Of a stretch of DNA of 64,000 nucleotides, positions 6,030 through 50,969 are shown one piece after another (within the stretch, counting starts at the first letter, position 1; the number at the start of each line of letters is the position of its first letter). The DNA lies in NCBI GenBank assembly GCA_951804945.1, contig OX638150.1, positions 50,406,001 to 50,470,000 of the forward strand, given 5' to 3'. Under the pieces are notes generated by a model. It saw nothing but the letters and a program-made list of their open reading frames with translations. It made no database searches and was not told the origin of the DNA. A program made the position numbers and the translations under genes. This DNA comes from Podarcis cretensis (taxonomy: Eukaryota).

Positions 6030-6240
6030 ACAAAATTAAAAACAATAGAAGCCTATAAACACAGCAATACAATTAGAAGGGTAAAAAAAATGCACAACAA
6101 AGCCCTGCAGTGGCTTCATGTAGATGTTGAACAGCACTGAGCCCTGTGGCAACCCCACATTGAAAGCAGCATGGAGCCGAACAACCCCAGGTACCCTCTG
6201 GAAATAGCCATCCAAGCAGGAAGAATCACAAAAGGGAACT
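6030..6240 (-). mobile_element. Decayed L2/CR1-clade LINE RT fragment
   Basis: ORF 6036..6269 contains NVGLPQGSVLFNIYMKPL, a remnant of the RT motif GVPQGSVLxPxLFNIYMxPL. Confidence 0.6.
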
Positions 6241-6953: not shown

Positions 6954-7206
6954 GAAGAAGAAGAAGAGTTTGGATTTGATATCCTGCTTTATCACTACCT
7001 GAAGGAGTCTCAAAGCGGCTAACATTCTCCTTTCCCTTCCCCCCCCCACAACAAACACTCTGTGAGGTGAGTGGGGCTGAGAGACTTCAAAGAAGTGTGA
7101 CTAGCCCAAGGTCACCCAGCAGCTGCATGTGGAGGAGCGGAGACGCGAACCCGGTTCCCCAGATTACGAGACTACCGCTTTTAACCACTACACCACACTG
7201 GCTCTC
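6954..7206 (-). mobile_element. tRNA-derived SINE (Squam3-like) with (CTT)n tail
   Basis: Minus strand begins GAGAGCCAGTGTGGTGTAGTGGTTAA (A box)...GGTTCGCGTCTCC (B box), continues through a CORE-like GGGTGACCTTGGGCTAGTCAC, and ends in a CTT repeat. Confidence 0.8.
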
Positions 7207-8289: not shown

Positions 8290-8427
8290 AAAGTAGTCAA
8301 CATAGTGCCCTCCAGTTGTTGTTCAGCTATAACTCCCATTCTCCCTGATCATGGGCCAAGCTGGGTGGAGCAGATGGGAAATGGAGCCCAACAACAACTG
8401 GAAGAGCACTATGTTGGCTATCCCTGA
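8290..8427. mobile_element. Degenerate palindromic hAT-type MITE
   Basis: Arms CAACATAGTGCCCTCCAGTTGTTGTT / AACAACAACTGGAAGAGCACTATGTTG; same architecture as the 5760 and 60846 elements. Confidence 0.6.
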
Positions 8428-8486
8428 TCTAATTCTTTAGAACCTCTTGACGATGTGCTTCAATTGATACCAGTGTCTTTCCCAGA

Positions 8487-8819
8487 AAGGGCTGGCCCTG
8501 CCATGAGGTAATGTGAGGCAACTGCCTCAGGTGGCAGGATCCTTGGGGGGCAGCAGATGTGGGCTCCAAGGAATGCATCGCCTGCTTCTGTTGCTGCCAC
8601 AACAGCTGTAGCACACTCCTTGGTGGCTGAATCTGCCACTTCCTCATTGCCCCCCACCCCTGGCGGCTCTACAGTGGCCTCTTGGTGAATAGGAGGTGCT
8701 GCTGGTTTCTTCCCACCCTTCTTCCTGATGTAGGTTTTCACCCACCCCTTCTTCCCTGGCAGAGGGGGATGCCATTTTGTGATTTGCCTCAGGTGTCAAA
8801 ATGTATTGGGCCAGTCCTG
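8487..8819. mobile_element. Probable non-autonomous DNA transposon
   Basis: Ends AGGGCTGGCCC...GGGCCAGTCCT form an imperfect inverted repeat; subterminal TGCCTCAGGTG occurs twice; GC-rich against AT-rich flanks. Confidence 0.45.
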
Positions 8820-11784
8820 TCTCCAGAGATTAGATTCAGAGTCATTCACAAGCACCCAACTGGCACTGTCCTAGTTATGTTCCTGTGAGGAACAGCTGTG
8901 TTTTTCAAGAATACATTCAGAACTCTTTTTACTCCAACAGACAAACAGGTTGGATCTCACCTCTTTGGGTGTGGGAGGATGAGGCCATAAGTACAAAGTG
9001 ACTGACTTACTCAGAAAAAGAAATGTTCAAAACTCATATGCTTATGTGAACCAAATAATCAAGCCCATCCTAACATTTGCAGTCTTAGGCTGGAACTAGG
9101 CATTTCAAATGACACAAGGTGGCTGCTGAAAAGGGCACAGTGAAAGCGTCCAGATGCTTCAGGAGGATATGAAGAGAGGGCGGATAGCCAGCTCTTTCAG
9201 AATGTGTTAAAAACCAGCTCTTTGCATATTTGCTGACAAGCGGGAAGAAAAGAAAACTGCTTTCGTAGTGGCTTACCCACTCAAAAGTGCCTTACCCACT
9301 CAAAAGGTGGGTGGGTGGGAAAGAACACACGTTTATATTCCTGGGGAAAATAGCCATTTTGTTTGTTTTTCTTGCTGAGTGAAAGTATACCATCACCTGA
9401 TGGGATTTAAAAGTGCCACAGTCTTTGTTCCTCAGGAAAATATCCTCAAGAGCAAATCTGTCTCAGTAGCTCACATTTCATTTGTAGGTTTTTATCAATG
9501 TTATTTGTAGGTTTTTATCAATACATTAGATTTGAACTTTCTCATTGTGGTCAATCTAACTTTTCCATCTTGGCCAACAATACTCAGCCTCCTGATCTTC
9601 CATAAATTTACAGAGTCTTTGTTGCTTATTTCCCAATTTTATATATTATTATTTTATTTCCTAATTTATTCTAAGAAATGGAACGTTAAAGATAACACTG
9701 ACAGTAATTTTTTGAACACGTGTGTCTAGTAGGACTTGACAAACCCTCCTCCACACACCCGTTTCCTTAAAATAAGGACAATGAGAGATATTCTGTTTCT
9801 TTCTTGGGGGGTAGGGGAGAAATTTATCTGAAATTTTCTGGGCCTAGTTGCCCCTGAACATATTGTGGTCTGCCAGGAAGTGTGGCCATCAGAAAGAGAG
9901 CCCTGTGCACAGAGTAGAACCTTTTTAAATTAAAGCAAAAAAAAAAAAAAAAAAAAAAGAGTGGTGAAGGTGAAGGAAAACCCTTTGCCACATTATAAGG
10001 CTAAGTAAGATAGCTGACAGCTCCCTCTCAGACATTTCAGACACTTCCTCCTACCCCGCCACACTCCTCACCACCTGAATAATCTTCTAGGATCCAAAGA
10101 ATGGACCAAAAACATAGTCTAGTAAGATGAACAGGAGAATTGAGTTAGGTCAGAGAAATCCTTGGAGACAGGGGGAAATAGAGGAGAGAAGAGAAAGAGA
10201 AATTTATGGCCAACTCTCCTTTTAGGCTAGTACTGTAATGGGTTTCTCCTCCGTGGGAGGCAACTGCCCTGAATGGAATATGAATCCCACTTGTCTAGTT
10301 TGGATGCTGCTCATGTCTAAGCAAAAAAACCCCACACAAACCCCAGCACTTGTGTGTCTGCTGAGGGACACGGCTTTGAAAGCTCATTTAAGTTGCTTAG
10401 TAGAGGTCAGGAACTTGCTGCTCTCACTGCATGCATCACAGTAATTATTATTTGAGCCGGGCAGTTTAAGCATGAAGGGAAAAGAGATTTCTCTGCACCC
10501 CCACTTGCTCTCTCACCTAGAGATGAAGCAGGGGGCTTCCACTGTCTTTTCCACTTCCTTAAAACTACATTTTTGTGGAGTGGTTCTGGCACTCCAACAC
10601 TGCCTTCTGCATCTTCAAGAAGGCTACTGAGCTGCAGCGTATGCTGTTTGTGCATAGCTCCTGTTCTTTCCAGTGCAGTGTGGAAAACTGTTCCCCTGAT
10701 TCTCCCCCTCTGCATTCCTTTTAATGGCACCTGCCAAGATACCATGTCTATGGCAGCTGTATGACTCCAATGCCCCTTCCCTGTGGAAATCAACATTCTC
10801 AGGTTAGGAGGCAACTGATCACTGAACACATACACCTACAGAAAGAGTGCTACCCTGACTCTTTTTTAAAAGTTGGGTGCTCTGGTCTGTGAAAAGATGG
10901 AAGAGCCACAGAGAAAACACAGATGGTCCACAACTGGGTGCACATTGTGGATGTCCTGCAAAATGTGGGGGGACCAAGCATGGCTGTTGTGGAGTGAAAG
11001 CCTTGCATGGAAAGCACTTCATCCAAGGCTATGAAATTATGATTTTTTAAATGGCACAATGTTAAGGATTCTGTTTCCAACAGTTTGTCTATAAAGAGAA
11101 TCCATTGTAGTAAGTTTTGTTATTGTTACTTTTTTTAACTGTGCAGAAAGTTCAGGAGTACTGAAGCAACCTCCTTCCCCCGCAAAGAAACTCGGTTCAA
11201 AACTTTGTTCCCTGATCATTTTAAATACAGCCCTAGGTCCTAACCCTAGACAGCTTTCCTGCCCTTATCGTTTTGTATCTGCATGAGGTTTTAATGCCAA
11301 ACCAACACCTACCCCTTCTCTCAGAAGCTGTGTTGTGTTTTGTTGCTGACAACTTTGTTCATCACATACTGATTGTTCACAGTCATCCCGTAATATCACA
11401 CCGCCAACCATTGTCACAGGCCTTGCTGCCAGAAGTGAAATAAAATACAGATTCATAACAAGCCTAATTAGGAGAGTAATAATAGGTTTTGTGCAGCCTT
11501 CTACTGCCTTAGAAATTACACCCTTTCCCTGGAGGAGGAATGTACCGCTACCCACATATGTAATGTGGAATAATCTCACAATATGTTTAGTTAAGCTAAA
11601 GCAAGCTGGTTTAATTCTGTAAATACTACATGTTATCAAAGAATACAACCAGGGTAAATAAACAACCTCAAAAATAAGAAGTATTATAAAACTGTCATAA
11701 CTAAGCTTTTCATTTCCTGAAAATTAAAACTCGTTTTGTAAAGTGTTTCCTGGATCTTTCTGCTACTGGTAAAGACTCTCCTCC

Positions 11785-12544
11785 TGCAAAGAGGGGAGGG
11801 GTTGTGGGCGGGATCCAATCTCCGCCTCAAGCAGGGGGCGTTAGCCCCCTGCCACCCACTTACATGGCTGGCGCACCACGCCCACGGGCAAGCGCCTAAC
11901 CAGGCGGCTTGAAGGGGGCGTGGACAGCAGCTTAACTTGTTGCTGCGCCAGCCATGCGGCCTCACTTTTTGCCATCCCATCGCGAGTCACCCACCCTCCA
12001 CTCCCTCAGAGCTCAGGGTTTCAATTTCTCTTTTGGCCTTGCTATGGACCTTAGGTTGGTCACCCAGGTTGTCCAGGGGGCCTGGTAGGAATTTTTCCAT
12101 TTGGCATTAGGCTTTGTGGTTTTTTCGCTTACCTCGTAGCAACCGTCACACCTTTCGTGGTATTGGTGGGTAGGTTAGGCATTGGAATGTGTTTGTGGCG
12201 GTGGAAGGGCTAGGTGTGGCCATCGCCTACGCCTTCAATTTTGGGTATTCCGTTAAAGGAATCCGGCGGTCGTGGATCCTGTCCCATGCCTGTGTGGCGG
12301 GGGGCCATGGCACGACCCTCGGTGACATCAGCGGAGAGCTTATAGTTGGATTAGCATCAACGGGCCCCACCTACTGGTGAATAAACTCCCCTGGAGTCAA
12401 GTCACATGATCCAATGCCTAAGCCAATACCTTTTCACTTGCTGTAATCAATAAAGTTGTGGCCTTTTCTTGTGACCCAATAACCTTATATTACGTGTCCT
12501 TGTCTCTTCATTTCACTAAGCGGGGATTGGGTCCTCGAACCACA
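11785..12544 (+). mobile_element. GC/CpG-rich LTR-like terminal repeat (solo LTR or DIRS/Ngaro-type repeat; class tentative)
   Basis: Sharp switch to GC/CpG-rich sequence, GC boxes (GGGCGG, GGGGCGTGG), AATAAA at 12449-12454 followed by a GT/T-rich tract, TG...CA ends. No TSD found. Confidence 0.6.
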
Positions 12545-13974
12545 ATCATATACTTTGCAAAGAACAAGGGTTTTTGCTATACCAGATCACTGCTACAGCA
12601 CTCTGCCTTAAAAATTGGGCAATTATATAAGCAAGGAAGGCTCGATGGCAATATCCTGTGTCTGACCATGGAGGTTAGGAGCAGCTTAAAGCCTAACCAG
12701 AAGCAGGCCGCATGTCAACATTTTCTTATAGGTCTAACTTGCAACATCTCTGACATGGTTCATGCCAATATTAATGTATGTTGCTTGGGTGAGAGTAGCC
12801 AAGTTAGCGTAGGGTTGCAAGCAAGTGTGATGGCAAATTATTATTCTTTTCCATGCACCTATTGAAATATTTGGTGGGCTGTTGTTATTTTCAACACACA
12901 GTTTCCTGGTAGACATCCAAATCAGCACATAGCCAGAAATTACAGGTGTCTGACCCTTAAGTGCCCTCAGAGTCCAACAAGCAGATGGTAATAACATAGC
13001 AAACCTAGATCTAAGCTACAGTGTTCCTCAAGCTCACGGCTGCATCGAGTTGTTCAATACTATGGTTGTCAAAACAAACAGAAGCTGAAGGTGAGCCGAA
13101 CCTTTTAATTAAGAAATGCTACTTCAACAACCTCCTGTAATTGAAGCAGATGAGACTGTGTTTATTACACCAATACAAATTATGATTATTAGCCCAGTGG
13201 TGCAAATAAAAACTCAGTGACCAATTCCAAGACAGCCAGCGGTATTATTATTATTATTAATAATAATATTACTATTATTATTATTATTTACTAAGCTTTT
13301 GGGCAATGGCTTTGAGCAACTTAGACTTTAACCTAAGGGCTATATTGTTAATACATATAAGCATTTTAAACTAAAATAAGTCTCCCCTCCAATGAACACA
13401 ATAAGGAGCAGCCAGATACCCAGCTAATCTTTTTAAAAACCCAGTTGTCATGGTTGCATTCACAATCAAGATGCTCACACATTCCAAAAGTGCCTGTCTT
13501 TGAGACTGATATAATGCTAGGTGAATTTTTTAAAAAGTACTAGAGGATAGGTTTGTGTAGCATCCTTTCACGCAGAAGATGTATTACACATTTATTCCAA
13601 ACTATGCTTGGATAGCTACCAAATGAATCATATACTTTGCAAATCTGGTAGCATCTGAAGGGTTTCCTGAGAATGAGGAATCCCAACACAGACTTGGACC
13701 TGATATAAGATGGGACTTCCATTATGGACCATTCTGCAATTTGGAAAACTGCTACACAATAGCTTAGACAATTTCTTTAAGCCACGCAACTCAGTTTATG
13801 GTCAAGTAATGTTGTAACTTTTAGTAACTTTAAGCTTTCTATAAGATAGAAGGGATAGGATCTAGCAAATGAGCAGAGGGAGGAGTTTTTTTTAGGGGAT
13901 GAGGCACCTTGATCCACGCTGCCACTTGCTTTATTTCACATAGTGACGGCATTTTGAGCATGGCTCTGAAGATA

Positions 13975-14798: not shown

Positions 14799-15048
14799 GA
14801 GGAACAAATCCAGTGTGATGCTAAGGTGATTGTTCTGTGAGTGCAAGGATTTCTGCATGCATGGCTGAATTATCTCTCCTCCCGCCACAAGATGTTCTGG
14901 AGGTTCTCCTGATCCCCCAAGCCAATTTGAGGGGGGCAGGCATGCATGGGGGGGAGGATGGGGGGGAAGCCCCACTGCGCTACTGGAATTCCTTACACGC
15001 ACATCTGCTAGTGGAACTAGTTAGCTGAATTCAGCCTCAACAGTTTCC

Positions 15049-15091
<43 letters not shown>

Positions 15092-15810
15092 CCTTGCACT
15101 CATAAGTTTACCATTTCAGAGATTCCTTTCTACTTTCTGCCTCTTCAAGGAGGTTTTCAAATCTTCTTCACTGCCCCAAATGTAAGAACTTTGAAGGTGA
15201 AATACAGAATCTTAGATTCAATTGGTTTCAATTTTAAAGCACTGTAAGCTATTGTGGGACAAACACATTCCAACTGCTTTTAGGAGCATTCACAAAGGGA
15301 ATGGCTTGAAACACTTTAGAAAGTGCCTGTAGAAGACATGTCACTTTAGCCAGGCAACTCGATTTGCTGTGGGGCTCTTTTGTTTGAGAGACTGGAATTC
15401 TAAGTAATTTAAAGGAACACTTCCATAGTGCTTTTTGAGAAAACTAGATAGAGGCACCCAACTATAGAAGCAAAGACTTTTCTCTTAATTTGAAGGGCAG
15501 CAATGAGTCCTCTTTTACTGGGCCATGTTTATATTAGTCCTGTCTTTTACTTGTATGGAGGAACAAATCCAGTGTGATGCTAAGGTGATTGTTCTGTGAG
15601 TGCAAGGATTTCTGCATGCATGGCTGAATTATCTCTCCTCCCGCCACAAGATGTTCTGGAGGTTCTCCTGATCCCCCAAGCCAATTTGAGGGGGGCAGGC
15701 ATGCATGGGGGGGGGGAGGATGGGGGGGAAGCCCCACTGCGCTACTGGAATTCCTTACACGCACATCTGCTAGTGGAACTAGTTAGCTGAATTCAGCCTC
15801 AACAGTTTCC

Positions 15811-15856
<46 letters not shown>

Positions 15857-16321
15857 CCTTGCACTCATAAGTTTACCATTTCAGAGATTCCTTTCTACTT
15901 TCTGCCTCTTCAAGGAGGTTTTCAAATCTTCTCCACTGCCCCAAATGTAAGAACTTTGAAGGTGAAATACAGAATCTTAGATTCAATTGGTTTCAATTTT
16001 AAAGCACTGTAAGCTATTGTGGGACAAACACATTCCAACTGCTTTTAGGAGCATTCACAAAGGGAATGGCTTGAAACATTTTAGAAAGTGCCTGTAGAAG
16101 ACATGTCACTTTAGCCAGGCAACTCGATTTGCTGTGGGGCTCTTTTGTTTGAGAGACTGGAATTCTAAGTAATTTAAAGGAACACTTCCATAGTGCTTTT
16201 TGAGAAAACTAGATAGAGGCACCCAACTATAGAAGCAAAGACTTTTCTCTTAATTTGAAGGGCAGCAATGAGTCCTCTTTTACTGGGCCATGTTTATATT
16301 AGTCCTGTCTTTTACTTGTAT
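14799..16321. repeat. Tandem duplication of about 760 bp (copy 1 14799-15556, copy 2 15558-16321)
   Basis: The copies differ only in G7 vs G10, (AAT)13 vs (AAT)14 and two substitutions, as far as I could see by eye. The ORF track shows duplicated ORFs (14837 and 15596). Confidence 0.95.
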
Positions 16322-17390
16322 TTGGGTTTCTTTGGGTTTCTTACTTGCTTGTTTTTAATTGCTTTTGTTGTAAGTTGCTTTGGGAGAGACAAGGGACTAA
16401 TAAATATAATATAGTGGAATGGAATACATAAATAAATAAATATGCAGAGAAAGATCATGTAGGCGGTACAATTTGTACCACTTGAAGTGTGATTATAACA
16501 TACATTTCTTCTGAACAGCGAAACATATTTTTCAGGGTGGGGATGTGGAGAATGGGATGCTCAGTCTAAATCTTATGTCGTGTTTATAACCTTTTGAAAA
16601 TAAGAAATAAATGGGAACGTGGCCTATGCTGAAATGAAGCCTTTTTGGACATGCCAGTTTCTTCGTGTGATGATTTTTCCATCCTCCCAGATAATGAATA
16701 ATTCCATCCCTGACACCCCCTTGTTGCTTCGCTGCATTGTACATTCATCTAAATACTTCACTAAAACTAATCTTTGCTGATCTTTTCAAAGTCTCAACAT
16801 AAGATTTATTGGAATATGTCAGGACTCAGCATGTGCTGGAATAAATGTGACCTTTAAACTAATATTTGGGTTTCTTCCCATCATGGCAGCAATCCTAGTT
16901 TTGATATTTTTCACCTTTTCCTTTAGTCATAAAGCATTTTCCACCAGGCATGGGAATCAAACTCAGATTGCAAGACCCTCAACTGGCAGTTGAAAAGCTC
17001 AGTTTGGAAATGGAAGGAATAAAGAATCTCCTAAATGAGTACTGTGTTAGGGATCCATGTGTGACATAGAGATCTCACCGTTTTGTTGCATAATAGGAAG
17101 AAAAAGCCATTAACAAAGCACTGTGAGATACTGCAGCTATTACTTGAGTTTGATTTTCATGGGCAAAGAAAAGTCTAAAGGAAAGGACAGGTGATGCACA
17201 CTTATTTATTTATTTATTTATTTATACGTGCAGCTCTGCTTCCCCACATTTAGGGGTCCTCAGAACAGCAGAGTTCATTTCGTTCTCAGGCACTACTAGC
17301 ATCACACAGTTGGGTGTTAAACTCTTGTGACATTTGACAAATGCCCCACAGTGGACCCGTTTATTTATTAATGCTGCCTACCTAATAAAC

Positions 17391-17526
17391 CAGGCATAGG
17401 CAAACTCCAGCCCTCCAGATGTTTGGGACTACAATTCCCATCATCCCTAGCTAACAGGACAAATGGTCAGGGATGATGGGAATTGTAGTCCCAAACATCT
17501 GGAGGGCGGGAGTTTGCCTATGCCTG
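17391..17526. mobile_element. Palindromic hAT-type MITE (same family as 5760-5895)
   Basis: TIR CAGGCATAGGCAAACTCC; perfect 8-bp TSD TAATAAAC. Confidence 0.9.
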
Positions 17527-18907
17527 TAATAAACTAGTGTTTCAAATGCAAAGTCATCTTTTGTTTATAGCTAAGAAAAAAGAACCAATTAATTATTAGT
17601 ATGATCAGCCATCTTGAAAAACAGTAAATCATTGGGGTCTTCTGTTCCTATCAGGGGAGCTATTAGCCGATTCATTTGATCTTTGATGTGATTAAATTCC
17701 AACATTCAAAGATTTACATGAGCAATTTAAACTTTATTATCTCTGTGGCTGCCTTACTGTTCCATCTTCAAATGGTTTAGAATTGCACATTAATCCCTTG
17801 TTCTGTAGATATCTCTGGAGGGTCTTTCCCATGCAATAGCACTTAGCTTTGTGAGATAATAACTGTATGTAATCATAAAATCTTCATAGCCATCAATAGA
17901 ACAGTCTGCCATAATGTTAAACAAGAGTTTCCAATGGCTTGAGCCAATTTAATCATATACTCCTGATTATTTTTTACTATCAAGGGGCAGTTCAAACACC
18001 AAAATCAAAGGCTTTTCTTATGTTTGATCATTTATTTAAGCCATCAGATGTGCATACTCAAAGTATCAACCCAGCCAGACAAAAAAAGAAGAGAGAAACT
18101 TCTCAAAATTTAAAAGTATTTAAAAACATTATGCAAGACCTTACCATGATTAATTGCTGCAGTTTTAAGCAAATTCTCATTTAATTCCAATAAGAAACCA
18201 TGAAGTAGTAACCTGTGGATCAGCTGGAAATATGGCAGAAGCTACTGTGTAACTGGGACTCTTAAAGTCAGTCTGACCACTATCTGTATTAATGCAATGT
18301 TTTTCATCCTCCTTTTATATTAGGCTATAAGCTCCTCGATGGCAGGCCCTCCTCTATTTGTTTTTTTACTGTTGTGCTTATGAATAATCATAATATTTAT
18401 ATAAAGAAAAAAATGATCAGTAAGTCAGCTGCCTCAGTTTAACTTATTTTCTTTTAAAACAGAGTTGAACGACATGCTAAACCAAACAATGGCTTAGTCT
18501 AGCTCAGCAGCAAAACAGCAGGGGAGGAGCAAAGTGCCTGTGATCTTTTCAGGAGACAGAATGTTTGCTCATAAGGACTAAGTCCTTAGCACTACATGCC
18601 AGCAAGCAGTACATCTCTTAGCCTAAACTACCAAACAGGGTCATCACTAAGACAGAACAGCATCAATACAGGTAGCCCATTTTAAGTTCTTTGGAGGGAA
18701 AGTGGGACAAAAACATGACTGGAAAAGAAAGAAGAACAGGAATCCCAGTGGTCAGGAGCAGTGTTTCAATTACCTTGCCTAGATATTCACTCTCAGTACA
18801 ATCATTGCACATATATTAATCCACATTAGGTATCTAACTTCACTTAAACTTTATATGGATACTAATTACCAAGACCAATCACTGCCTAAGTATACAGAGG
18901 TGACATA

Positions 18908-27000: not shown

Positions 27001-28411
27001 CCCCTCCACCACCCAAAGTGTGGCATAAGGGGATCTTGGATTGCTCTGTAAATAGTGGAATAATGAATTCATTTGCGACAGGAAATTCTGGGGTAGAGCC
27101 ACATGATCCTCATCTTGGAAGCCCTCCCAATAACCTAGGAAAGTGCAATATTATTTTCATATGGCCTTATAAAATGAACCTCAAGTCCCCTCATATTTTA
27201 TTTTTCCTTCAGACCAGTTTGAGGGAGATTTTGAACATACACAAAATAATAATAATAAATATCCAAGAAGATCAAACTAAATGATGTGTTTTGTTTATAA
27301 ATAAATAACATTAGTTCCTTGCAGACTTTGATTTATCTTATCTGCAGTGAGTGGGCTTGATGAACTTTAATGAATTGCTTAGCAGAATCATAGTCAAACT
27401 AGTCCTCATACTCATTTTTGCAACCTGTACCTGCAAAATAACCTAACATTTTGCAGACCACAACTTCCTGCTTTCCAGCCTGTCAGAGTTAATCATTTCA
27501 TCACAATTGGTACCTCAGTACAGTTAATTCCCTTCTAAGATGAATCACTCATTTCTAATATTGCCTTAGCAACATGAACGTATTTTTACTTTGGAGTCTA
27601 ATCAAAGCTGCGACTGAAGACTTGACAAATATGGTCTGTCCTTGTCATTGGCAAATTGCAGACTATGTTCTTGGTTGAACTCTTAGCATCCCACTAAGAT
27701 GTTTCAACAGGAAAATAACAAGTAGATGAGCACAACACGTCTGGCAGGGTTATGGCAGCTACAAGGTCACAGAGTTTCAACTGAAAGAAAGAAATGCCTT
27801 CTGAAATTGGAGATAGTTTTAGTTGTTATAAACGGAACATCTTTTGACTGCTGTTCACCATCTGTTAATGCTATGTCAATGCAAAGCCCTGGGCTTAAAT
27901 TCCTTGTTGTTGGCATACCTAAAATGGAATTTCACACACCTTATCTTACAGCTTTGTAGCATAATAACTCATTGGTGGCTATCTGCTAAAGAAATATTCA
28001 CTCATATCATAGGCAGCCAATGCCATGCCCTTCCCCCCCAACAGCCCTAGCCAGGATGGCCAGTGGTCAAAGATCGTGTTGGGTACCTCTGGGATTAACT
28101 GGCGTTCAAATCATGAGTTCAAGCCATCATCAGATAGCTTCAAAAACTATTCTTTTTGGTTTCAGGAAGAAACCATAAAGAAGACACTTGCTCACTGCCC
28201 ACTTAGCTCTGCATGGATCTTTCACACAAAAAATGCATGAATTTTGCATTTTTCCGTAATTTATTTTAACATGCACTGCTCAATGAGTGTCAGGTAGCAT
28301 AAATTTTTGTAGCTTATCTTTAAAGCCTCTGAAAACAGTAACATTTAAACTACAAAATGAGACATGCAGATACAGTGTAGTGGCAGCTTGGGATGAAAAG
28401 AAATAATAGTG

Positions 28412-28745
28412 TCTTCCGGGTTAGCGCCTCCGGCAATGGCAGAGCTCCTCCGATCGGGAGGAACCGGCTCCGTGAAAAACAGGGTCTGACTGCCACGGCG
28501 ATGGCGGAGGCCCTTAGAAATCACAGACGGAAGAAGTCTGTGAACCTGGGATTCGGCTGGCACCTTCTGCGCCCCCCTACTCGCGGGGAGACCCAGTATT
28601 GGGAATCCGGAGCGACATGGGGCGAGAGGCACGGTGCTTTGAATCGACCGCTTATTTCACGGAGCGAAGCCGCATTGCTGCTGTCGGAGAGCGCTGACTT
28701 TTTTTCCTGTGGACAATTGGATTTTAAACAACAACCCGTGAGTAG
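28412..28745 (+). promoter_or_regulatory. CpG-rich internal promoter-like 5'UTR of the HAL1-like element
   Basis: Dense CpG starts exactly at the TSD. ETS-like CTTCCGG at the start and YY1-like ATGGCGG at about 28501. Internal promoters are the norm for L1 5'UTRs. Confidence 0.55.
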
Positions 28746-29020
28746 AACAGGAAATTGAGCTTTTAAATAATTTCATTTGGCACCGAACGGGGAAGGTTTA
28801 AACAGGAAGTCCACCTTCCCTTTCTGTAAATAGACTGAAGCAAAGAAGTTATTAACTAAGGTTTTGGAAAGTCTTACGTAAAGGATTAAAACTCCGCTGA
28901 TTGAAACTATTAATTTTGACCAAGTGAACTTGCACGAGAAGGTGGAAAATTAAAATTGAAGCATCACGTCTCTGAACCTGGGAACGGTTTGCAAAAAGTC
29001 CATTGACGGTAAACAGGACA

Positions 29021-29076
29021 AATTTGACAGCTAGCTTTAATTTGACAGCTGGCTTTAATTTGACAGCTAGCTTTAA
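29021..29076. repeat. 3 x 18-bp tandem repeat AATTTGACAGCTRGCTTT in the element 5'UTR
   Basis: Units at 29021, 29039 and 29057. Confidence 0.9.
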
Positions 29077-29305
29077 CAGAAAGACATTGTTTCTATTGTC
29101 TGCTTCTGCACTTAAAAAGAAGAAAAAGTAACTGGAAACTGTTACTAATTTACTTTTGGAATTGTGCTGGAAAGGACTGATACAAATTTGAGACTGTCTT
29201 CCTCTAGAGAGGGAGTTTTGGGACATTGTTACAAGAGTGCAGCTGGGAAACTGGTCTTAAGATAAAGACTGTGAGAAACTAGTTCTGACCTTGAACATCT
29301 TAAGA

Positions 29306-29950
29306 ATGTCGGCAAAGGAAGAAGTAGTGTCTGTTCTGAATAGGACAATCTATCTGTTGGGAAAGCTGCATAAACAGATAGATGTCATGGCTACTAATAT
29401 TGATATCATGGGAATAAAAGTGGGCATCAGCATAGAAGTCGACAAGAACCCGGCACAAGAATCTTTCCTAACTGAACAAATTGATGAATTAGAGAAGGAG
29501 AAAGTTGCTGTTGTTGAATATAAAGCAAAACAAGGGGGAGCCTTAACCCTAAAGAGGCAAATGGAGGATTACAACTTGAGGTCTTATATGATTGTAAGTA
29601 GGAGAAGCCAGCTTTTGAAGATGGGTGCCTGGCCTGATCTGGAAAAGGAAAGGTGGAGAGATCCCTTTATGCAGGGGTCAAATGACTTTTGGAATATGAA
29701 TTTGAGCCAGGAGGAGATTGGAGTTTCGGGGGCCTTTGGACTTGGAAGAATTGTGAAACAAGGTTTGGAATATTTTATGGGCCCTAGCTTTAATTATGGA
29801 AATCTGGCAGACCTGTCAAGAAGGAATATAAGCATCATTGGGTTGGAGCTCCCCCGAGATCTGCTTTTTAGCACCAAAGACTATCAAGAAGATCGGCAGA
29901 AGGGAAGTGAAGAAGAGTTAAGAGCCTCGGATATAAGATCTCCAGGTTGA
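29306..29950 (+). CDS. L1 ORF1p-like protein, 214 aa from the first ATG (divergent and shortened)
   Basis: Only long sense ORF in the element. N-terminal heptad-like stretch (LGKLHKQIDVMATNIDIM...EQIDELEKEK), then motifs reminiscent of ORF1p RRM/CTD (SRRSQLLKMGAWPDLEKE, GAFGLGR, DLSRRNISIIGLELPRDLL). Homology judged by eye. Confidence 0.55.
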   Translation: MSAKEEVVSVLNRTIYLLGKLHKQIDVMATNIDIMGIKVGISIEVDKNPAQESFLTEQIDELEKEKVAVVEYKAKQGGALTLKRQMEDYNLRSYMIVSRRSQLLKMGAWPDLEKERWRDPFMQGSNDFWNMNLSQEEIGVSGAFGLGRIVKQGLEYFMGPSFNYGNLADLSRRNISIIGLELPRDLLFSTKDYQEDRQKGSEEELRASDIRSPG

Positions 29951-32071
29951 TGGACGCTGGGAGGTTGATGGAACTGACGGCAGGGGCCGGGACCGGGGAG
30001 GGGAGACGGGGGAAGGAAATTGGGAATTTAAAGTGTATATATAGAGATTTAAAAAAATTTTTTAATGAGAAATGGAAAAATCGTGGAATAAAATTTTTAT
30101 GACCCTAGGGGAAATGTCTTAAGAGATGAAGTTCAAATATATTAGTTTTAATGAGAAAGAAGATTAAATAAAGTAAAAATGGATGATTAATTGGTGAGAA
30201 GAGAATGTTAAATTACAGTATATTAAGATAAATTATTAGGATAAAAACAAAGATGAAGGATTTGCTGAAATATCTAACTGAACCAGAATACAAAGAGGGG
30301 AGGTGTGAGGAAGTCAAGGAAATAAGCTAAAGAAAGAAAGTTATGTAATGGTTTGATCTGTTCTTTTTTATTTTATTTTATGCATCCTTTTTTCTTTCTT
30401 GTCTGTTTTCCATTTTTTATCTTTTTTCTTTGATGTGACTCGTTTTTATGTTTTGCTTTCATTTTTGGTTTAATTGGGTGTTTTTCTGTTGTTATTTTTA
30501 TATTACTTATGTAACCTTTAAAATTTTAATAAAAATCTTTTTTTTTAAAAAAAAAAAGAGAATAAAAAAAAGAAAAGAAAAGAAATAATAGTGCATTTCC
30601 CCGCTTGCTTAGAGATATCTTTCCCTCTTGAGTCATTTTGGACAGTTTACTCCAGCCTGAGAAAATGTTGCTTTAAAAACACCCAAGGTATTATGTGGAC
30701 AAAGCTGACCCCATAATAGGAAATCTTGTATTGAGAATGTCTGTTAAGTGCTTTCCATCTTCCTCCTTAATGAGTTCGTCTTTTTTCAGTAAACTTTTTA
30801 TTTAAGTGCTCTTTGTCACACAGCATGGGCTGTTAAGATTTTCTTAAACATCAGGATCAAATAAAAATAGCTTTCTTCTACAAGGAGCTGGGTTGATGTT
30901 TGCCAATGAACATTTTTGCCCATGTACATGACCCTTAGTCATTTTACCAGATTTAGATTCTGTGCTCACTTGCATTAGCTTGAGCTCAGAATTCCTGGAC
31001 CTTCTTGTAGCCTTTTGTTATGCTTCAGTCCTTGTTTGTAAAGTCAAGACTAAGAAAGTGGGTGGGAACTCATCAGGAGGTAAGTGCAAATGGGTTCAGG
31101 GAACTCCTTGAATCCTTGTCTAGGAGAAATATGCAAAACTGAGGACAATATCAGAGTGGTCCCATGATTTACTTCCTTCCAAAATATTTTTTTCAGTACC
31201 CTTCTTGAAATACTGAGGTTTAGGATTCTTAACAAAGAAGGGGGTGTTCATAATATAAGCAGGCAAGCATTTGGGGGGGGGGCATGTATTCCATACTCTG
31301 CATTTTAGCTTTCAGAATGAAGAATACAGTACTGTATTTTTTTCTAAATATAAGGCAGGTACTACTTCTGGCAGCAACATTTAAATAATATTTTGTGAGT
31401 CTTAACTACCAGATCCATTCCCTAAGACATGGGTTGACAAGCAAGATATTAAGAGAAGGATGACATTCTGTGGTGTCCTAACCATTTGTTCTGCTTTGTG
31501 ATAAAATTCTTTTAAAATCTTCTTTTGCACATCTATAGATCACCATGCACAACAATATTTGATCCCTATCACTGTACTTGGCAACAATAATAGCCAGCTC
31601 AGAACACTCAGTATAAAATATGCCACCTGTCCTTTGGGTTACAAGAAAATGGCACACTTCATAATCAACTGCAAATTCCTTGCACTGAGCCTCCCTTTCT
31701 ATTAACTTTCTTAACACCCCCACTGTTTAGGGACCAGCATTTTTAAGAAAAGTGCCAGGTGAGGCAGCCACCACCACCTTTATTTCCCCATTCTAGCATT
31801 TCTCCAGAATGCCTCAGGACCCAGGCCCATGCCTGCCACTGAAGCACCATCTCCCAATCCCTTGCCCCCCTAATAAAATTGCTGGGGACCAACAGGGGGG
31901 CTTGGAGTGGTCACTGTAGTGCCCCTTGTTTAGGGCTTCTCAGTCCTGTAACTACTGAACAAGCCATTGAACAAGGGGAAGTTCTAGAACGTCGATTAAA
32001 ATGAATAAATACACACATACACACACGGACACACATGAACACAGAAACATGTAATAAAATAAAAGACTTAC

Positions 32072-33564: not shown

Positions 33565-36500
33565 ATGATGGCAAGTTACAATAAACTGTCTAATATGCAG
33601 CACAGAGAAGAGAAATGCCCCCATAAATGGCATTCTATCTCCCACAATTATGGAGTCTGCAAGAAAACACATGTGACTAGGCTCCACAGAAAAGTGCTAA
33701 TAAACAAAAGACTGGGCCAGGAATTTATATCTTCGGACAGAGTAAAGAAGAGAAGTGTGGTCATTTATGCAAAAGAGAGCCTGTCACCCAAATTCCTATT
33801 TAAAGACGAACATGGAAGAATTTTGGCAATTGAGATACAACATCAAGGAGAGAAACTTTTGATATTAGGAATCTATGCGCCAAATGAGGGGAAATCGGAA
33901 TTTTATAAGAAGTTGTGTGAGACCATGCTGGACTATCTGGACTACAACAACATCATTTTGATGGGAGATATGAACGGGGTCGTATCAACCAACATGGATA
34001 AGTCACAAAGCCAAAATGTTACAAAAGATGGCAGACTACCAAAGACCTTTTTCGAAATGACAGACAATATGGATTTGATTGATATCTGGAGGATAAAGAA
34101 CCCCTTGGGAAGAGAGGGAACACTTTTCTCTGAAGCCCAACTGACCTGGACAAGAGTCGACCAAATATGGATATCTAGAGGTCTGGCACCCAAGGTCAAA
34201 AAGGTGGAAATCTGCCCAAAGACCTGCTCCGACCATAATGCAGTAAAGATGGACATGACACTAATACCAACCGGCTCCTTTAGATGGAAGATGAATGACA
34301 ATTTGTTTAGAGATCAGGAGATTATTAAGAAGGCCCAAAAAGCTCTAAAGGATTATTTTGAGATAAACATGAACACTACGGTGGAAAAAAGAACCATCTG
34401 GGACGCAAGCAAGGCAGTGGTGAGGGGGTTCTTGATACAACAGAATGCTGTAAAGAAAAGGACACAAAATGAGAGGAAAGATAAAATCTTGGAGAAAATT
34501 AAAGAATTAGAAAAGAAGCTAAGATTAAACCCGAAGTCACAGCCGACGCTGAGAGAAATTAAACTTCATCAAGCACAATATTCTAAATTGATAAACCAGG
34601 AAATAGAGTGGAAGATTAAATTAATGAAACAAAAAACTTTTGAATCAGCGAATAAATGTGGAAAACTGCTAGCTTGGCAGTTGAAGAGGAGACAAAAACT
34701 AAATACAGTTACAAATTTAGAGATTGAAGGAAGAAACATTCAGAACCCTGTGGATATTAGAAAGTGCTTCCAGAGATATTTCAAAAAATTATATACCCAA
34801 GGGCCGCAAGATGAGATTGAGATTAAACAATTTTTGGAAAAAAATGGATTACCAAAATTGTCACAAGAAAATAGATCAATCCTGAACTGTAAAATAACAC
34901 GACAAGAGATTGAACAAGCCATTCAGAATATGAAATTGGGCAAATCTCCAGGACCAGATGGGCTGACCTCCAAGTATTATAAGACACTAAAAGACTATCT
35001 GATACAACCACTGATGGAGGTTAGCAATGAAATTATGGAGGGGAGGAGGGCGCCAGAATCGTGGAAAGAAGCTTTCATCACATTGATACCAAAATCGGAA
35101 GCTGAAAAGACACAACTTAAGAACTATCGTCCCATCTCTCTTTTAAATGTGGATTATAAAATATTTGCAGATATTCTGGCAAGTAGATTTAAAAAAGTTT
35201 TAAACGAAGTAATTCATAAGGACCAGGCGGGCTTTCTCCCAGGTAGACACTTGTTTGCTAACACAAGGAACATTATTGACATTTTGGAACTTTTGCAAAC
35301 AGACATAAATACAAAAGCAGTGTTAATTTTTATAGACGCGGAGAAGGCCTTTGACAATATCTCCTGGAAATTTATGAAGGGAAATTTAAAAGAAATGGGA
35401 GTGGGACGGGGTTTTGAGAATGGGATTGATGCAATATATTCAGAACAAAAGGCTAAATTGATAGTTAACAATGTGGTCACAGAAGAGTTTAAAATTGAAA
35501 AGGGAACACGACAAGGCTGTCCTGTTTCCCCTTTGCTATTTATTTCAGTTCTGGAAGTGCTCCTGAATATGATTAGAGGGGACCGGTTGGTGGAAGGAAT
35601 TCAGGTCGGAGCGAAACAATATAAACTCAAAGCTTTTGCAGATGACCTAGTTTTGACCCTGCAGGAGCCAGAATCTAGTACGAAAAGAGTACTACAACTG
35701 ATCCAAGACTTTGGTCGGGTGGCGGGATTTAAACTAAATAAACAGAAAACCAAGGTATTGGGAAAAAATTTGACAGATACAGAGTCAGAACGGTTTCAGA
35801 GAAAGACAGAATTAAATGTGGTTAAAAAAGTAAAGTACCTAGGGGTAAATATAACAGCAAAAAATCTGAGTCTATTTAAGGATAATTATGAAAAATGTTG
35901 GTCAGAAATTAAGAGAGACTTAGATAGTTGGACAAAATTGAAACTTTCTTTGTTAGGCCGAATTGCTGCTATTAAGATGAATGTATTGCCAAAAATATTG
36001 TTTTTGTTTCAAACACTACAGATTGTGGACAAGACGGAGTGCTTCCGGAAGTGGCAGAGAGATATTTCTAAGTTTGTCTGGCAGGGCAAAAAGCCCAGAA
36101 TTAAGTTTAAGATATTAACCGACGCGAAAGAGAGAGGGGGCTTTGCCCTGCCGGACTTAAAGTTGTATTATGAGGCCGCAGCTTTCTGCTGGCTAAAAGA
36201 TTGGCTACTTCTCGAAGACACTGATGTATTGGATTTGGAAGGTTTTAACAATGCTTTTGGTTGGCATGCATACTTATGGTATGATAAGGTTAAAATCAAT
36301 AAGGCCTTTAAAAACCATATTGTCAGAAAAGCAGTGTTCAATGTCTGGACAAAATATAAAGACTTATTGGAAAACAAAACTCCAAGGTGGCTATCACCTC
36401 TGGAAGCTAAGGCCCCAAAAAAACCCAGTATGGAGGCCAAATGGCCAAAGTATTGGGAAATTTTAGAAAAAGATGGAGACAATTGGAAATTGCAGAGTTT

Positions 36501-37293
36501 GGAGAAAATGAAGGATAAAGTGCGAGACTGGTTACACTACGCTCAGATTAAAGAAGTTTTTAAAAATGACAAAAAGTTAGGGTTCCAGGTGGAGAAATCG
36601 AAATTGGAATCAGAACTGCTAGAACCTAAGACTAAGGTACTTTCAAGAATGTATAACTTGCTGTTAAAATGGAACACACAAGATGAAATGGTTAAATCGG
36701 CTATGATAAAGTGGGCACAGGACATTGGGTATAATATCATGTTTGAGGACTGGGAAAGGTTGTGGACCACTGGGTTGAACTTCACTGCATGTAATGCTTT
36801 GAAGGAAAATGTAATGAAAATGATATATAGATGGTACATGACCCCAGTTAAACTTGCCAAAATATACCATTTGTCTGATAACAAATGCTGGAAATGTAAA
36901 GGGAATGAAGGAACATTCTTTCACCTCTGGTGGACGTGCCCTAGAGTGAAGGCCTTCTGGGAAATGATATATAATGAGTTGAAAAAGGTATTTAAGTATA
37001 CTTTCCCCAAGAAACCAGAGGCCTTTCTCCTGGGTATTGTCGGCCAGAGGGTGATAAAGAAGGACAGAACTTTTTTCCTGTATGCAACAACAGCAGCAAG
37101 GATACTCATCGCCAAGCACTGGAAAACCCGAGATCTACCCACACTGGAAGAATGGCAGATGCAACTGATAGACTATATGGAATTGGCTGAGATGACCGGC
37201 AGAATCCGAGACCTGGGAGAGGAGAGGGTTGAAGAAGACTGGAAGAAATTTAGGATTTATTTACAAAAACACTGTAATTTGGTTGAATGTTAA
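33565..37293 (+). CDS. L1 ORF2p (APE endonuclease lacking its N-terminus, reverse transcriptase, CCHC domain); the first ~32 codons are host flank
   Basis: EN motifs GIYAPN, MGDMN, DIWR, SDH. RT motifs KSPGPDG, YRPISLLNVDYKI, DAEKAFD, GTRQGCPVSPLLF, FADD. C-terminal CWKCKGNEGTFFHLWWTC. Confidence 0.93.
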   Translation: MMASYNKLSNMQHREEKCPHKWHSISHNYGVCKKTHVTRLHRKVLINKRLGQEFISSDRVKKRSVVIYAKESLSPKFLFKDEHGRILAIEIQHQGEKLLILGIYAPNEGKSEFYKKLCETMLDYLDYNNIILMGDMNGVVSTNMDKSQSQNVTKDGRLPKTFFEMTDNMDLIDIWRIKNPLGREGTLFSEAQLTWTRVDQIWISRGLAPKVKKVEICPKTCSDHNAVKMDMTLIPTGSFRWKMNDNLFRDQEIIKKAQKALKDYFEINMNTTVEKRTIWDASKAVVRGFLIQQNAVKKRTQNERKDKILEKIKELEKKLRLNPKSQPTLREIKLHQAQYSKLINQEIEWKIKLMKQKTFESANKCGKLLAWQLKRRQKLNTVTNLEIEGRNIQNPVDIRKCFQRYFKKLYTQGPQDEIEIKQFLEKNGLPKLSQENRSILNCKITRQEIEQAIQNMKLGKSPGPDGLTSKYYKTLKDYLIQPLMEVSNEIMEGRRAPESWKEAFITLIPKSEAEKTQLKNYRPISLLNVDYKIFADILASRFKKVLNEVIHKDQAGFLPGRHLFANTRNIIDILELLQTDINTKAVLIFIDAEKAFDNISWKFMKGNLKEMGVGRGFENGIDAIYSEQKAKLIVNNVVTEEFKIEKGTRQGCPVSPLLFISVLEVLLNMIRGDRLVEGIQVGAKQYKLKAFADDLVLTLQEPESSTKRVLQLIQDFGRVAGFKLNKQKTKVLGKNLTDTESERFQRKTELNVVKKVKYLGVNITAKNLSLFKDNYEKCWSEIKRDLDSWTKLKLSLLGRIAAIKMNVLPKILFLFQTLQIVDKTECFRKWQRDISKFVWQGKKPRIKFKILTDAKERGGFALPDLKLYYEAAAFCWLKDWLLLEDTDVLDLEGFNNAFGWHAYLWYDKVKINKAFKNHIVRKAVFNVWTKYKDLLENKTPRWLSPLEAKAPKKPSMEAKWPKYWEILEKDGDNWKLQSLEKMKDKVRDWLHYAQIKEVFKNDKKLGFQVEKSKLESELLEPKTKVLSRMYNLLLKWNTQDEMVKSAMIKWAQDIGYNIMFEDWERLWTTGLNFTACNALKENVMKMIYRWYMTPVKLAKIYHLSDNKCWKCKGNEGTFFHLWWTCPRVKAFWEMIYNELKKVFKYTFPKKPEAFLLGIVGQRVIKKDRTFFLYATTAARILIAKHWKTRDLPTLEEWQMQLIDYMELAEMTGRIRDLGEERVEEDWKKFRIYLQKHCNLVEC

Positions 37294-37586
37294 GAAGGAT
37301 GCCAGATCATAAATAATTGAGCACCACTAAATTAGACGCAATCTGGATGATAAGTGAGATTGAGGAAAATATAAACCTTTTGGAGAATTATTAGATTAAA
37401 TTAAATGAATGAGATTTAAGAATGTAAACAAGTTGATAAATTGCTGGAAAAAGTTTTACAATGATGCAAGTGGGAGCGGGAGACGTGAGGGAGTCCAAAG
37501 AAGCTTTGAAAATATGTTATGATACATGTCATATTGTTTATTATTTTTGCATTTAAAAAATCTCAATAAATATTTATTAAAAAAAA
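33660..37586 (+). mobile_element. 5'-truncated LINE-1 (L1 clade) insertion, antisense to HTR4
   Basis: 14-bp TSD AATTATGGAGTCTG (33646-33659 and 37587-37600). AATAAA at 37565 and a poly(A) tail. Uninterrupted ORF2. Confidence 0.95.
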
Positions 37587-37979
37587 AATTATGGAGTCTG
37601 ATGGCAAAGAGATTAGACTCCGTCCCTCATTTGAAGTTAGAGGCAACTGTATTAATGTAGGAGGATAAAAGAGAAACAGAGGATGAGGTCAAAAACTTAC
37701 TCATCTTGTACAGAGTCCTGTCTGCAACAGAAGACCATAAAAGATATTTAAGGCAAGGGAGATATGTGAGGAGCTACAAAAAAAAAATTATGGAGTCTGA
37801 TGGCATAGAGATTAGACTCCGTCCCTCATTTGAAGTTAGAGGCAACTGTATTAATGTAGGAGGATAAAAGAGAAACAGAGGATGAGGTCAAAAACTTACT
37901 CATCTTGTACAGAGTCCTGTCTGCAACAGAAGACCATAAAAGATATTTAAGGCAAGGGAGATATGTGAGGAGCTACAAA
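37579..37979. repeat. 199-bp tandem duplication starting in the L1 poly(A) tail
   Basis: A10-TTATGGAGTCTG...GAGCTAC occurs at 37579 and again at 37778; one mismatch seen (GGCAAAGAG/GGCATAGAG). Confidence 0.93.
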
Positions 37980-50749: not shown

Positions 50750-50969
50750 AAAACAAAATAAAAAAATTTCTTCCAATAGCACCTTAAAGACCAACTAAGT
50801 TAGTTCTTGGTATGAGCTTTCGTGTGCATGCACACTTCTTCAGATACACAGTGTGCATGCACACGAAAGCTCATACCAAGAACTAACTTAGTTGGTCTTT
50901 AAGGTGCTACTGGAAGAATTTTTTTTATTTTGTTTTGACTATGGCAGACCAACACGGCTACCTATCTGT
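50750..50969. mobile_element. Penelope-like element remnant with inverted terminal (pLTR) segment
   Basis: 12-bp TSD AATCCCAAAGTA. 87-bp inverted repeat (50750-50836 / 50850-50936). Contains TAGCACCTTAAAGACCAAC and GAAAGCTCATA, typical of reptile Penelope ends. Confidence 0.8.
50810..50847 (-). ncRNA. Minimal type I hammerhead ribozyme motif (Penelope-type)
   Basis: Minus strand GUAU-CUGAAGA-A-GUGUG(CAUG)CACAC-GAAA-GC-UC-AUAC: core boxes CUGANGA and GAAA, stem II, stem I GUAU/AUAC, and a rudimentary palindromic stem III. Confidence 0.7.

Follow-up and report, generated by a model that had tools for sequence, protein, structure and literature searches.

A highly repeated HAL1-like L1 derivative whose short ORF probably encodes a short-lived coiled-coil adaptor

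Anatomy, target site and repetition of the element

Within the window, the 64-kb stretch of DNA analysed as a whole, positions 28412-30576 are a young insertion, a 2,165-bp body in which an L1-type 5′ leader, one ORF and an L1-type 3′-end lie between two exact copies of a 17-mer (Table 1). Contigs from two related organisms (X4 record 17 and X6 record 24) pass from 28411 directly to 30594, with breakpoints at 2278/2277 and 1852/1851 in the respective records, and carry the 17-mer only once. The flanks are thus joined over an empty site, which identifies the insertion as young and bears out the original prediction of a 17-bp target-site duplication (TSD) around a 2.17-kb unit. The site is empty in two of three genomic-scale runs and filled in the third, and flank divergence is 0.9-1.5% in the two empty-site organisms and 0.3-0.5% in the filled-site organism. 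The target is purine-rich and lies behind a T which, together with the anatomy of the element, points to mobilisation in trans by ORF2p. Three kb from the element lies an L1 whose RT frame is open.

Table 1. Features of the element and its target site, in window coordinates
Feature	Position	Strand	Basis or remark
Left target-site duplication, 17 bp	28395..28411	+	identical to 30577-30593; one copy at empty site
5′ leader, 894 nt, lizard clade-1 L1 type	28412..29305	+	length within Anolis clade-1 L1 range
CpG-rich block	28412..28760	+	27 CpG, o/e 0.96, GC 57%
5′-terminal motif CTTCCGG...ATGGC	28413..28440	+	resembles clade-1 terminus, spacing longer
18-bp tandem repeat, x3.1	29021..29076	+	TRF; unit number variable
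Open ORF, 214 codons, at ORF1 position	29306..29950	+	ORF listing, relatives
Heptad helix, codons 7-39, ~five heptads	29324..29422	+	predicted coiled coil
ASD-h-R-x-PG-stop, codons 207-214 and stop	29924..29950	+	slowest-evolving part
TGATG, ORF stop overlapping ATG at deletion junction	29948..29952	+	sequence
Decayed, frameshifted relic of last ~35 codons of L1 ORF2	29948..30057	+	DNA alignment
AT-rich L1-type 3′UTR with T-rich stretch, AATAAA at 30528	30058..30546	+	alignment to L1 3′UTR
A-rich tail	30547..30576	+	sequence
Right target-site duplication, 17 bp	30577..30593	+	identical to 28395-28411

For Anolis clade-1 L1 elements, leaders of 792-1,465 nt and the 5′-terminus CTTCCGG...ATGGC are given in PMC5381506, and a motif of this type has a single match in the window (chance 0.02). 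The CpG-rich leader and the threefold 18-bp repeat had both been predicted and are readily apparent. CpG o/e, 0.21 for the window overall, reaches the tabulated value in the first part of the leader, where the window's top 300-bp bin for CpG is also found, and the leader is a putative internal Pol II promoter. One X4 contig omits 36 bp of the repeat (29021-29056), so the unit number is variable. The leader contains three upstream ATGs (28436, 28501, 28617). A 121-aa ORF at 28393-28758 begins outside the element, has no Pfam match and is taken to have arisen by chance.

The ATG that overlaps the ORF stop opens a downstream ORF at 29950-30102. The prediction that a 3′UTR, AATAAA and an A tail follow the ORF holds for the signal and the tail, but the stretch opens with a relic of the ORF2 C-terminus and is not purely 3′UTR. 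Aligned with positions 37166-37269 of the neighbouring L1, the relic scores 54 versus 23 +/- 4 for shuffled sequence (0/1000 shuffles as high), and contig loose ends at 29955 resemble an ORF2 end. Positions 30201-30378 score 70 against the 3′UTR of the same L1 (36 +/- 5 for shuffles, 0/1000), and ORF2-end and 3′UTR combined score 104 versus 44 +/- 7, with a maximum of 72 in 500 shuffles. A core of ~75 nt in this 3′UTR (about 30256-30330) is common to many other elements; it is the peak depth bin and is flanked on both sides by loose ends. As predicted, EN and RT are absent, the neighbouring L1 ORF2 having no tblastn match in the element. RNA folds of five stretches are none of them clearly beyond shuffles (best z -1.84, at the 5′-end), and a 3′ recognition stem is unsupported by this comparison.

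Thousands of contigs match the element, which therefore belongs to a highly repeated family. In three runs the element's summed contig depth exceeds that of the flanks by factors of 142 to 13,635, ratios that are not copy numbers. Downstream of the ORF stop, the continuation with the strongest support is the ORF2-tail relic, seen in 30 contigs of X1, 10 of X6 and 2 of X23 among the best-supported rows, besides which there are 987 weaker loose-end rows. A deletion junction common to many loose ends indicates a repeated unit, neither a single copy nor the one-off deletion that would have spoken against the original prediction. Together, the empty site, contig depth, L1 5′ motif and ORF2-end/3′UTR homology uphold the view of a young, multi-copy, TSD-bounded, non-autonomous L1 derivative. 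The host of the family is likely a lacertid, a relative of the wall lizards. Scans of metagenome and viral contigs revealed no loci for the 214-aa protein or for the neighbouring L1 ORF2. In X23, a run presumed to be of RNA, 27 contigs aligned to the stretch, which is not proof of transcription.

The encoded protein and its conserved ends

The stop-free 214-codon ORF is as predicted, and when the element was doublet-shuffled 1000 times, no ORF as long arose (maximum 135). The protein family has 17 aligned members of 174-215 aa, one of them from Podarcis lilfordi, that are 13-94% identical (median 35%), and the tree of the 16 complete proteins has a length of 8.8 changes per site. Many diverged relatives likewise have an open frame, within a collection of called ORFs that is biased to open frames, and two clusters have 4 and 7 open members of equal length. 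At least one protein annotated as 'hypothetical' in Podarcis, CAI5765718.1, is probably a copy from this family. The homologous proteins presumably belong to elements of this type. Gap totals are divisible by 3 in 5/6 gapped contig pieces from the ORF versus 0/5 from outside it, the pieces not being independent. Six of the eight listed ORF variants, a small set picked by support, are non-synonymous, and so reveal no strong amino-acid constraint there.

The ORF had been described as ORF1-like. It has the position of an ORF1 and encodes a heptad helix, but homology to ORF1p was not found by Pfam, PDB, Atlas or fold searches in which no lizard ORF1p was among the comparisons. Pfam returned no family for the 214-aa protein and only stray single-member matches for alignments A1 and A3 (E >= 0.03), the best PDB sequence match was unrelated (E 0.066), and the Atlas search gave no usable match for the 214-aa protein or the protein P0015. 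A word-seeded homologue search with the 214-aa protein alone accepted 0/502 candidates, and 0/7,999 longer proteins were accepted when scored against the family alignment, which is weak evidence. To judge from these searches, the protein family is undescribed so far. The comparison with the ORF1p RRM/CTD that had been proposed likewise produced no such fold: AF2 gave a pLDDT of 35 from the single sequence and, from the 17-row alignment, values below 50 for residues 69-198. Foldseek found no match to the predicted structure at E <= 0.001, and VIA-align found only generic long helices (Z <= 6.4), with residues past ~51 barely tested. These predictions, and the net acidic charge of 16/17 aligned proteins, weaken the suggestion that the protein is an RNP scaffold; its suggested role as a modulator of ORF1p trimers survives because the heptad helix is kept.

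As judged from the alignment, selective constraint lies at both ends of the protein. AF2 predicts a helix at residues 2-45, with block pLDDT values of 81-95 for residues 1-40, and hydrophobic periodicity has its maximum at 3.5. The heptad a/d positions (7, 11, 14, 18, 21, 25, 28, 32, 35 and 39) remain hydrophobic and evolve more slowly than their neighbours (site rate 0.64 versus 0.97). Site rates in the 16 complete proteins are 1.1-1.2 in the middle and 0.35 at residues 207-214, and in these proteins 5/8 columns are invariant in the last eight sites compared with 4/128 elsewhere. The middle has a few invariant residues (D127, K151 and R184) and is shortened by a deletion of ~27 residues in 7/17 rows, with a longer deletion in another two; a central RNA-binding part appears to have dissolved over the 8.8 changes per site.

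A PG end is present in 25/29 proteins and absent from four, an RxxG end is present in 23/29, the Arg is missing from 2/25 of the PG-ending proteins, and residues of the tail are exchanged conservatively (V/I/L, R/K). In its letters, R-x-P-G-stop fits both Gly/C-degron patterns, the -PG recognised by CRL2-KLHDC10 (PMC12035522) and the RxxG that APPBP2, in CRL2-APPBP2, binds at the extreme C-terminus (PMC10614623), and Gly is given as the rarest natural C-terminal residue (PMC9098119). These degrons were defined in human cells and are context-dependent (PMC9098119, PMC10614623, PMC12035522), and the conserved A-S-D belongs to neither pattern. The invariant A-S-D is unexplained by a degron reading. 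The 2A/StopGo motif D(V/I)ExNPG-P occurs in 0/29 proteins, and a 2A reading is rejected. The near-invariant C-terminal motif, the ORF2 relic and the TGATG overlap are features beyond those originally noted.

Comparison with other ORF1-only elements and L1-derived genes

HAL1 elements were reportedly treated by Smit (1999) and by Bao and Jurka (2010). As described in PMC5753468, PMC5786205 and PMC13756887, HAL1 is a mammalian half-L1 that arose several times. The element has the features expected of a HAL1-type unit, an L1-type 5′-end, a single ORF at the ORF1 position, no EN or RT, an L1 3′-end with a polyA signal, an A tail, a TSD and repetition of the unit. It differs in being a recently inserted and likely lacertid element, in retaining the ORF2 C-terminal relic, and in encoding a protein of ~210 aa, acidic and with a fixed PG-stop end, for which no ORF1p match or RRM/CTD fold was found, whereas HAL1 has a recognisable ORF1p. 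In the literature searched, by titles and abstract openings, no lizard HAL1 was found.

The Anolis clade-1 L1 elements, L1_AC1-AC15, as described in PMC5381506, share with the element the 5′-terminal motif, a long CpG-rich leader, a stop-start overlap without spacer, and an AT-rich 3′UTR with a T-rich stretch, AATAAA and an A tail. They have an ORF1 of 1,026-1,101 nt, compared with the 645-nt ORF here, and an average of 56 CpG in the leader compared with 35; the element has ORF2 reduced to its end, a leader tandem repeat of a kind absent from the lizard 5′UTRs described there, and a high depth, whereas the families in PMC5381506 are small. An autonomous clade-1 L1 (ORF1 ~1.0-1.1 kb, ORF2 ~3.7 kb) is excluded by the length of the ORF and the lack of an ORF2. 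The ORF1-only life style is already known in LINEs. The ORF1 proteins of HeT-A and Ag-Sponge are full Gag-like proteins. HeT-A (Jockey clade) and Ag-Sponge (CR1 clade), from different LINE clades and hosts, similarly encode only the protein at the ORF1 position and borrow the enzyme in trans (PMC5786205). The domesticated L1TD1 and Lyosin also keep ORF1-derived coding sequence open without ORF2, and Lyosin loses parts of the RRM in some birds, but these are single-locus host genes or exons rather than a mobile, TSD-bounded repeat of variable presence (PMC4161310, PMC12129022). A domesticated ORF1 gene, as a single fixed locus, is contradicted here by the empty site in two related organisms and by the high repetition.

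Interpretation of the conserved ORF

We consider it probable that the element is a highly repeated, HAL1-like, non-autonomous deletion derivative of L1 whose protein is a short-lived coiled-coil adaptor and not an RNA chaperone. Transcription would start from the CpG leader, and target-primed reverse transcription would very probably be carried out in trans by the ORF2p of a full L1. The neighbouring L1 is only distantly related to the element. The ORF most likely derives from ORF1, its coil having been shortened and its RRM/CTD eroded. It has been proposed that the proteins of non-autonomous LINEs that keep an ORF1 multimerize with their counterparts from the autonomous partner, the usual guess for why such ORFs are retained and one extended to HeT-A and Ag-Sponge (PMC5786205). 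By analogy the N-terminal heptads could quite conceivably, with a chance a little short of even, pair with helper ORF1p on the element's own polysome and so draw its RNA into assembling L1 particles. More tentatively, the R-x-PG end might recruit a CRL2 ligase and so make the protein short-lived and cis-acting.

An origin of the ORF outside ORF1, as a captured host or de novo frame between L1 ends or as a neutral leftover, would agree with the blank outcome of every ORF1p homology search, but is improbable given that the ORF starts at the ORF1 start, after a leader of clade-1 length, encodes a heptad helix and terminates at the ORF2 relic, and that open frames over this length of tree are hard to obtain neutrally. 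Even less probable is a working, compact ORF1p whose diverged RRM would still make it an RNA chaperone for packaging the element's RNA, the role assumed for mammalian HAL1. The ORF1 position, the heptad N-terminus and the invariant D127, K151 and R184 are what such a protein would have, and 17 rows could have led AF2 to miss the fold; the ORF is, however, far from the length of an Anolis clade-1 ORF1 (PMC5381506), the protein has no Pfam or PDB match, the middle is repeatedly deleted and almost all members are acidic.

An unlikely alternative is that translation alone matters, the open frame holding ribosomes on the RNA and the conserved end being a termination or stop-start signal, as peptide or RNA, inherited from the parental ORF1/ORF2 overlap; the protein would then be mostly waste that its degron-like end clears. 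The TGATG overlap fits this reading, ORF1 and ORF2 of Anolis clade-1 elements overlap by 1 nt in L1-AC8 and by 4 nt in AC11/12/14 (PMC5381506), UAAUG couples the SART1 ORFs (PMC3894237), and the protein middle evolves fast with large in-frame indels. It does not readily account for hydrophobic a/d sites that change more slowly than their neighbours or for conservative tail swaps; the relic downstream is frameshifted in the 28412-30576 copy, and the junction at the ORF stop has no stable RNA fold (z = +1.6 and -0.5). Constraint that falls precisely on a helix of oligomerisation type and an end of degron type, with a fast-evolving, acidic and poorly folded linker between them, would suit a protein that degrades ORF1p, its coil joining helper ORF1p oligomers and its C-degron passing the complex to CRL2, thereby freeing ORF2p from L1 RNA or damping L1. 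This seems improbable, as a parasite that depends on L1 gains little by destroying it and the literature searched for C-degron, retrotransposon and ORF1p together yielded no paper that could serve as precedent. The wider version, in which the parasite would have cut ORF1p down to a bifunctional degrader whose Gly-degron hands either the oligomers or itself to CRL2, is a long shot. If true, such a degrader would break the cis preference of L1 and steer ORF2p towards the RNA of the parasite; it would also account for a high copy number in lizards with small L1 families.

The family is a natural deletion experiment, in which the heptad helix and the eight-residue end have been kept and so point to the parts that the parasite needs. 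These are two small, mutable protein targets for testing. If the tail is a degron, C-degron biology would be linked to the cis preference of retrotransposons. For lizard geneticists, the element makes available a young insertion family that is variable in presence and absence.

Structure and L1 ancestry of the element

Each feature listed in the original prediction for the 2,165-bp element is present where it was placed (see the table). The leader has 27 CpG in its first 349 nt (observed/expected 0.96, as compared to 0.21 for the window), and when the element was doublet-shuffled 1000 times no ORF as long as its 214 codons arose (maximum 135). The absence of endonuclease and reverse transcriptase, also predicted, is borne out by a tblastn search with ORF2 of the neighbouring L1, which found no match within the element.

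Features of the element and of the window. Positions are those of the window; strands are in brackets.
Feature	Position	Description
TSD pair	28395-28411 and 30577-30593	exact 17-mer
5' leader	from 28412	894 nt
Tandem repeat in leader		18-bp unit x 3.1
ORF	29306-29950	214 codons
PolyA signal	30528	AATAAA
A-rich tail	ends 30576	
3'UTR core	~30256-30330 and 37430-37510	common to element, neighbouring L1 and many other repeats
Neighbouring L1 (+)	33660-37586	5'-truncated within endonuclease; ORF2 frame stop-free, RVT_1 E 1.8e-37
TSD of neighbouring L1	33646 and 37587	14 bp
Tandem duplication	37579-37979	199 bp, 99% identity; starts at the L1's A tail, takes in right TSD
GPCR coding exon (-)	58320-58973	rhodopsin family, 7tm_1 E 1.3e-27
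LTR-like stretch	~12000-12545	CpG-rich, AATAAA near 12449, CA end (by eye)
17-mer pair	12544 and 13626	exact; after LTR-like stretch
Tandem duplication	14799-16321	764 bp, 99% identity; AAT microsatellite in each unit
Repeat x 4	22161, 23784, 44857, 56153	~240 bp, internal 16-bp units, 82-92% alike
Palindromic MITE-like repeats	5754-5901, 17390-17527, 50742-50944, 60840-60991	
SINE-like repeat	~52630-52990	CpG-rich; presumably resembles Sauria SINE

By its sequence, the element is a deletion derivative of L1. At its 5' end it bears CTTCCGG...ATGGC, the sole such match in the window (chance 0.02), similar to the terminal motif of lizard clade-1 L1s but with longer spacing, and the leader length falls within the 792-1,465 nt given for these L1s in the available text of PMC5381506. 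The stretch downstream of the ORF can be aligned to the terminal part of the neighbouring L1, to which the element's 3' end is only distantly related, with a score of 104 (shuffles 44 +/- 7), and its first 110 nt match the last ORF2 codons (54 versus 23 +/- 4, reached by 0 of 1000 shuffles). At the protein level this relic is a weak match, equalled in 8 of 200 shuffles, and in the window copy it is frameshifted. The ORF stop codon and an ATG overlap as TGATG; excerpts of PMC5381506 give ORF1/ORF2 overlaps of 1 nt in Anolis L1-AC8 and 4 nt in three further families. Among the matches listed, contigs from sequencing runs X1 (30), X6 (10) and X23 (2; presumed RNA) depart from the window sequence at 29955 and then read like the ORF2 end. 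The junction is therefore shared rather than private and the element is no one-off deletion, in line with the original prediction.

The repeat at 37579-37979 is either a true duplication or an assembly artefact. We take the GPCR exon to resemble the serotonin receptor HTR4, and the element may lie antisense within or behind this gene.

Copy depth and insertion age

The element belongs to a highly repeated family. Contigs from 4 of 24 listed runs were aligned to 27400-31600, with 8,541, 6,310 and 2,390 aligned in the three large runs. Except for one small repeat near 28000, flank depth is 78-122 (X1, X4) and 13-18 (X6), and summed contig depth over the element is 142 to 13,635 times that of the flanks (426- to 4,677-fold for the four bins that fall fully within the ORF), ratios that are not copy numbers. 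Depth peaks in the leader, the end of the ORF and the ~75-nt 3'UTR core, a core common to other elements. The core is the highest-depth bin, with contig loose ends on each side; no stable RNA fold was found in it, and it may be a signal that lizard L1s conserve at their 3' ends.

The site is empty, with a single copy of the 17-mer, in organism B (run X4) and organism C (run X6), each of which has one contig that joins 28411 directly to 30594. A left-flank contig of X1 (organism A) enters the element by 31 letters, barely enough to count as bridging, and the site is therefore filled in this organism. As flanks differ from the window by 0.3-0.5% in X1 and by 0.9-1.5% in X4 and X6, the insertion is younger than the ~1% split or still segregating, consistent with the youth originally proposed.

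The protein family and its conserved ends

Relatives of the 214-aa product numbered 9 by unfiltered phmmer and 14 by profile search. Seventeen of the 29 family proteins were aligned, omitting the fragments P0004, P0008 and P0009 and nine near-duplicate cluster members; the aligned proteins have 174-215 aa and 13-94% identity (median 35%). All relatives come from Logan contigs save P0015 (CAI5765718.1), which is annotated as a hypothetical protein of Podarcis lilfordi, and the family is therefore likely lacertid. P0015 shares a long branch with P0007 and P0018 and is probably a copy of the repeat that annotation has taken for a host gene. Open members of equal length number 4 in one cluster and 7 in another. 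Among listed contig pieces, 5 of the 6 ORF pieces with gaps have gap totals divisible by three, versus 0 of 5 non-ORF pieces (p = 0.013, with several pieces reflecting one event and so not independent); 6 of 8 listed ORF variants are non-synonymous, which counts against strong constraint.

Constraint is concentrated at both protein ends. Positions 7, 11, 14, 18, 21, 25, 28, 32, 35 and 39 are hydrophobic family-wide (period 3.5) and evolve at a rate of 0.64 versus 0.97 for their neighbours; residues 2-45 form a single helix in the AF2 model (pLDDT 81-95 across residues 1-40). Residues 69-198 have pLDDT < 50, rates of 1.1-1.2 and large in-frame indels. The last eight residues (rate 0.35) hold 5 invariant columns, A, S, D, P and G, in all 16 complete proteins, versus 4 of 128 elsewhere; PG ends 25 of the 29 family proteins and RxxG 23. 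A 2A peptide was ruled out, its motif occurring in 0 of 29.

Sixteen of the 17 aligned proteins are net acidic; ORF1p is a basic protein. No specific match came from Pfam, PDB, Atlas, Foldseek or VIA-align, and a search for longer relatives found none, so that homology to ORF1p is putative. On the grounds of its position, heptad helix and junction the ORF probably descends from ORF1, with a different origin as a less likely rival. It is also less likely that the product is a compact ORF1p, still working.

Mode of propagation and comparison with known elements

Transcription would start from the CpG leader and, after translation, ORF2p supplied by a full L1 would reverse transcribe the RNA at a nick, leaving the A tail and TSD, a route that we regard as highly probable. 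The ORF would stay open as its product helps in cis. We favour, tentatively and at somewhat below even chances, an adaptor role in which the heptads would pair with helper ORF1p and so bring the RNA into L1 particles; multimerization with a partner's protein is proposed for ORF1-keeping non-autonomous LINEs in the available part of PMC5786205. Less likely, the protein might instead be a degrader of helper ORF1p. Its end fits two Gly/C-degron patterns, -PG of KLHDC10 (PMC12035522, in part) and RxxG, bound by APPBP2 even at the very C-terminus (PMC10614623, in part), and glycine is described as the rarest residue at natural C-termini (excerpt of PMC9098119). We give odds well below even to a short-lived protein, whose help would thereby stay with its own RNA; the degron reading leaves the conserved A-S-D unexplained. 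Alternatively, the parent might have passed on the end as a signal for translation or stop-start, for which SART1 offers a precedent (PMC3894237, in part).

In its way of working the element resembles HAL1, HeT-A and Ag-Sponge. Of the predicted 'half-L1' identity, four HAL1-type features stand, but because the defining ORF1p feature is only putative the class is HAL1-like, not HAL1. The available text of PMC5753468, PMC5786205 and PMC13756887 describes HAL1 from mammals and names no other hosts. Open-literature titles and abstract starts yielded no lizard HAL1 or Podarcis non-autonomous LINE of this kind, and literature outside subscription journals nothing linking a C-degron to retrotransposon ORF1p. 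The element is real, young and repeated, with a life style already known; new relative to the literature searched are the host group, an RNA-binding fold that has apparently been lost while the frame stayed open, and the fixed degron-like end, which is cheaply testable.
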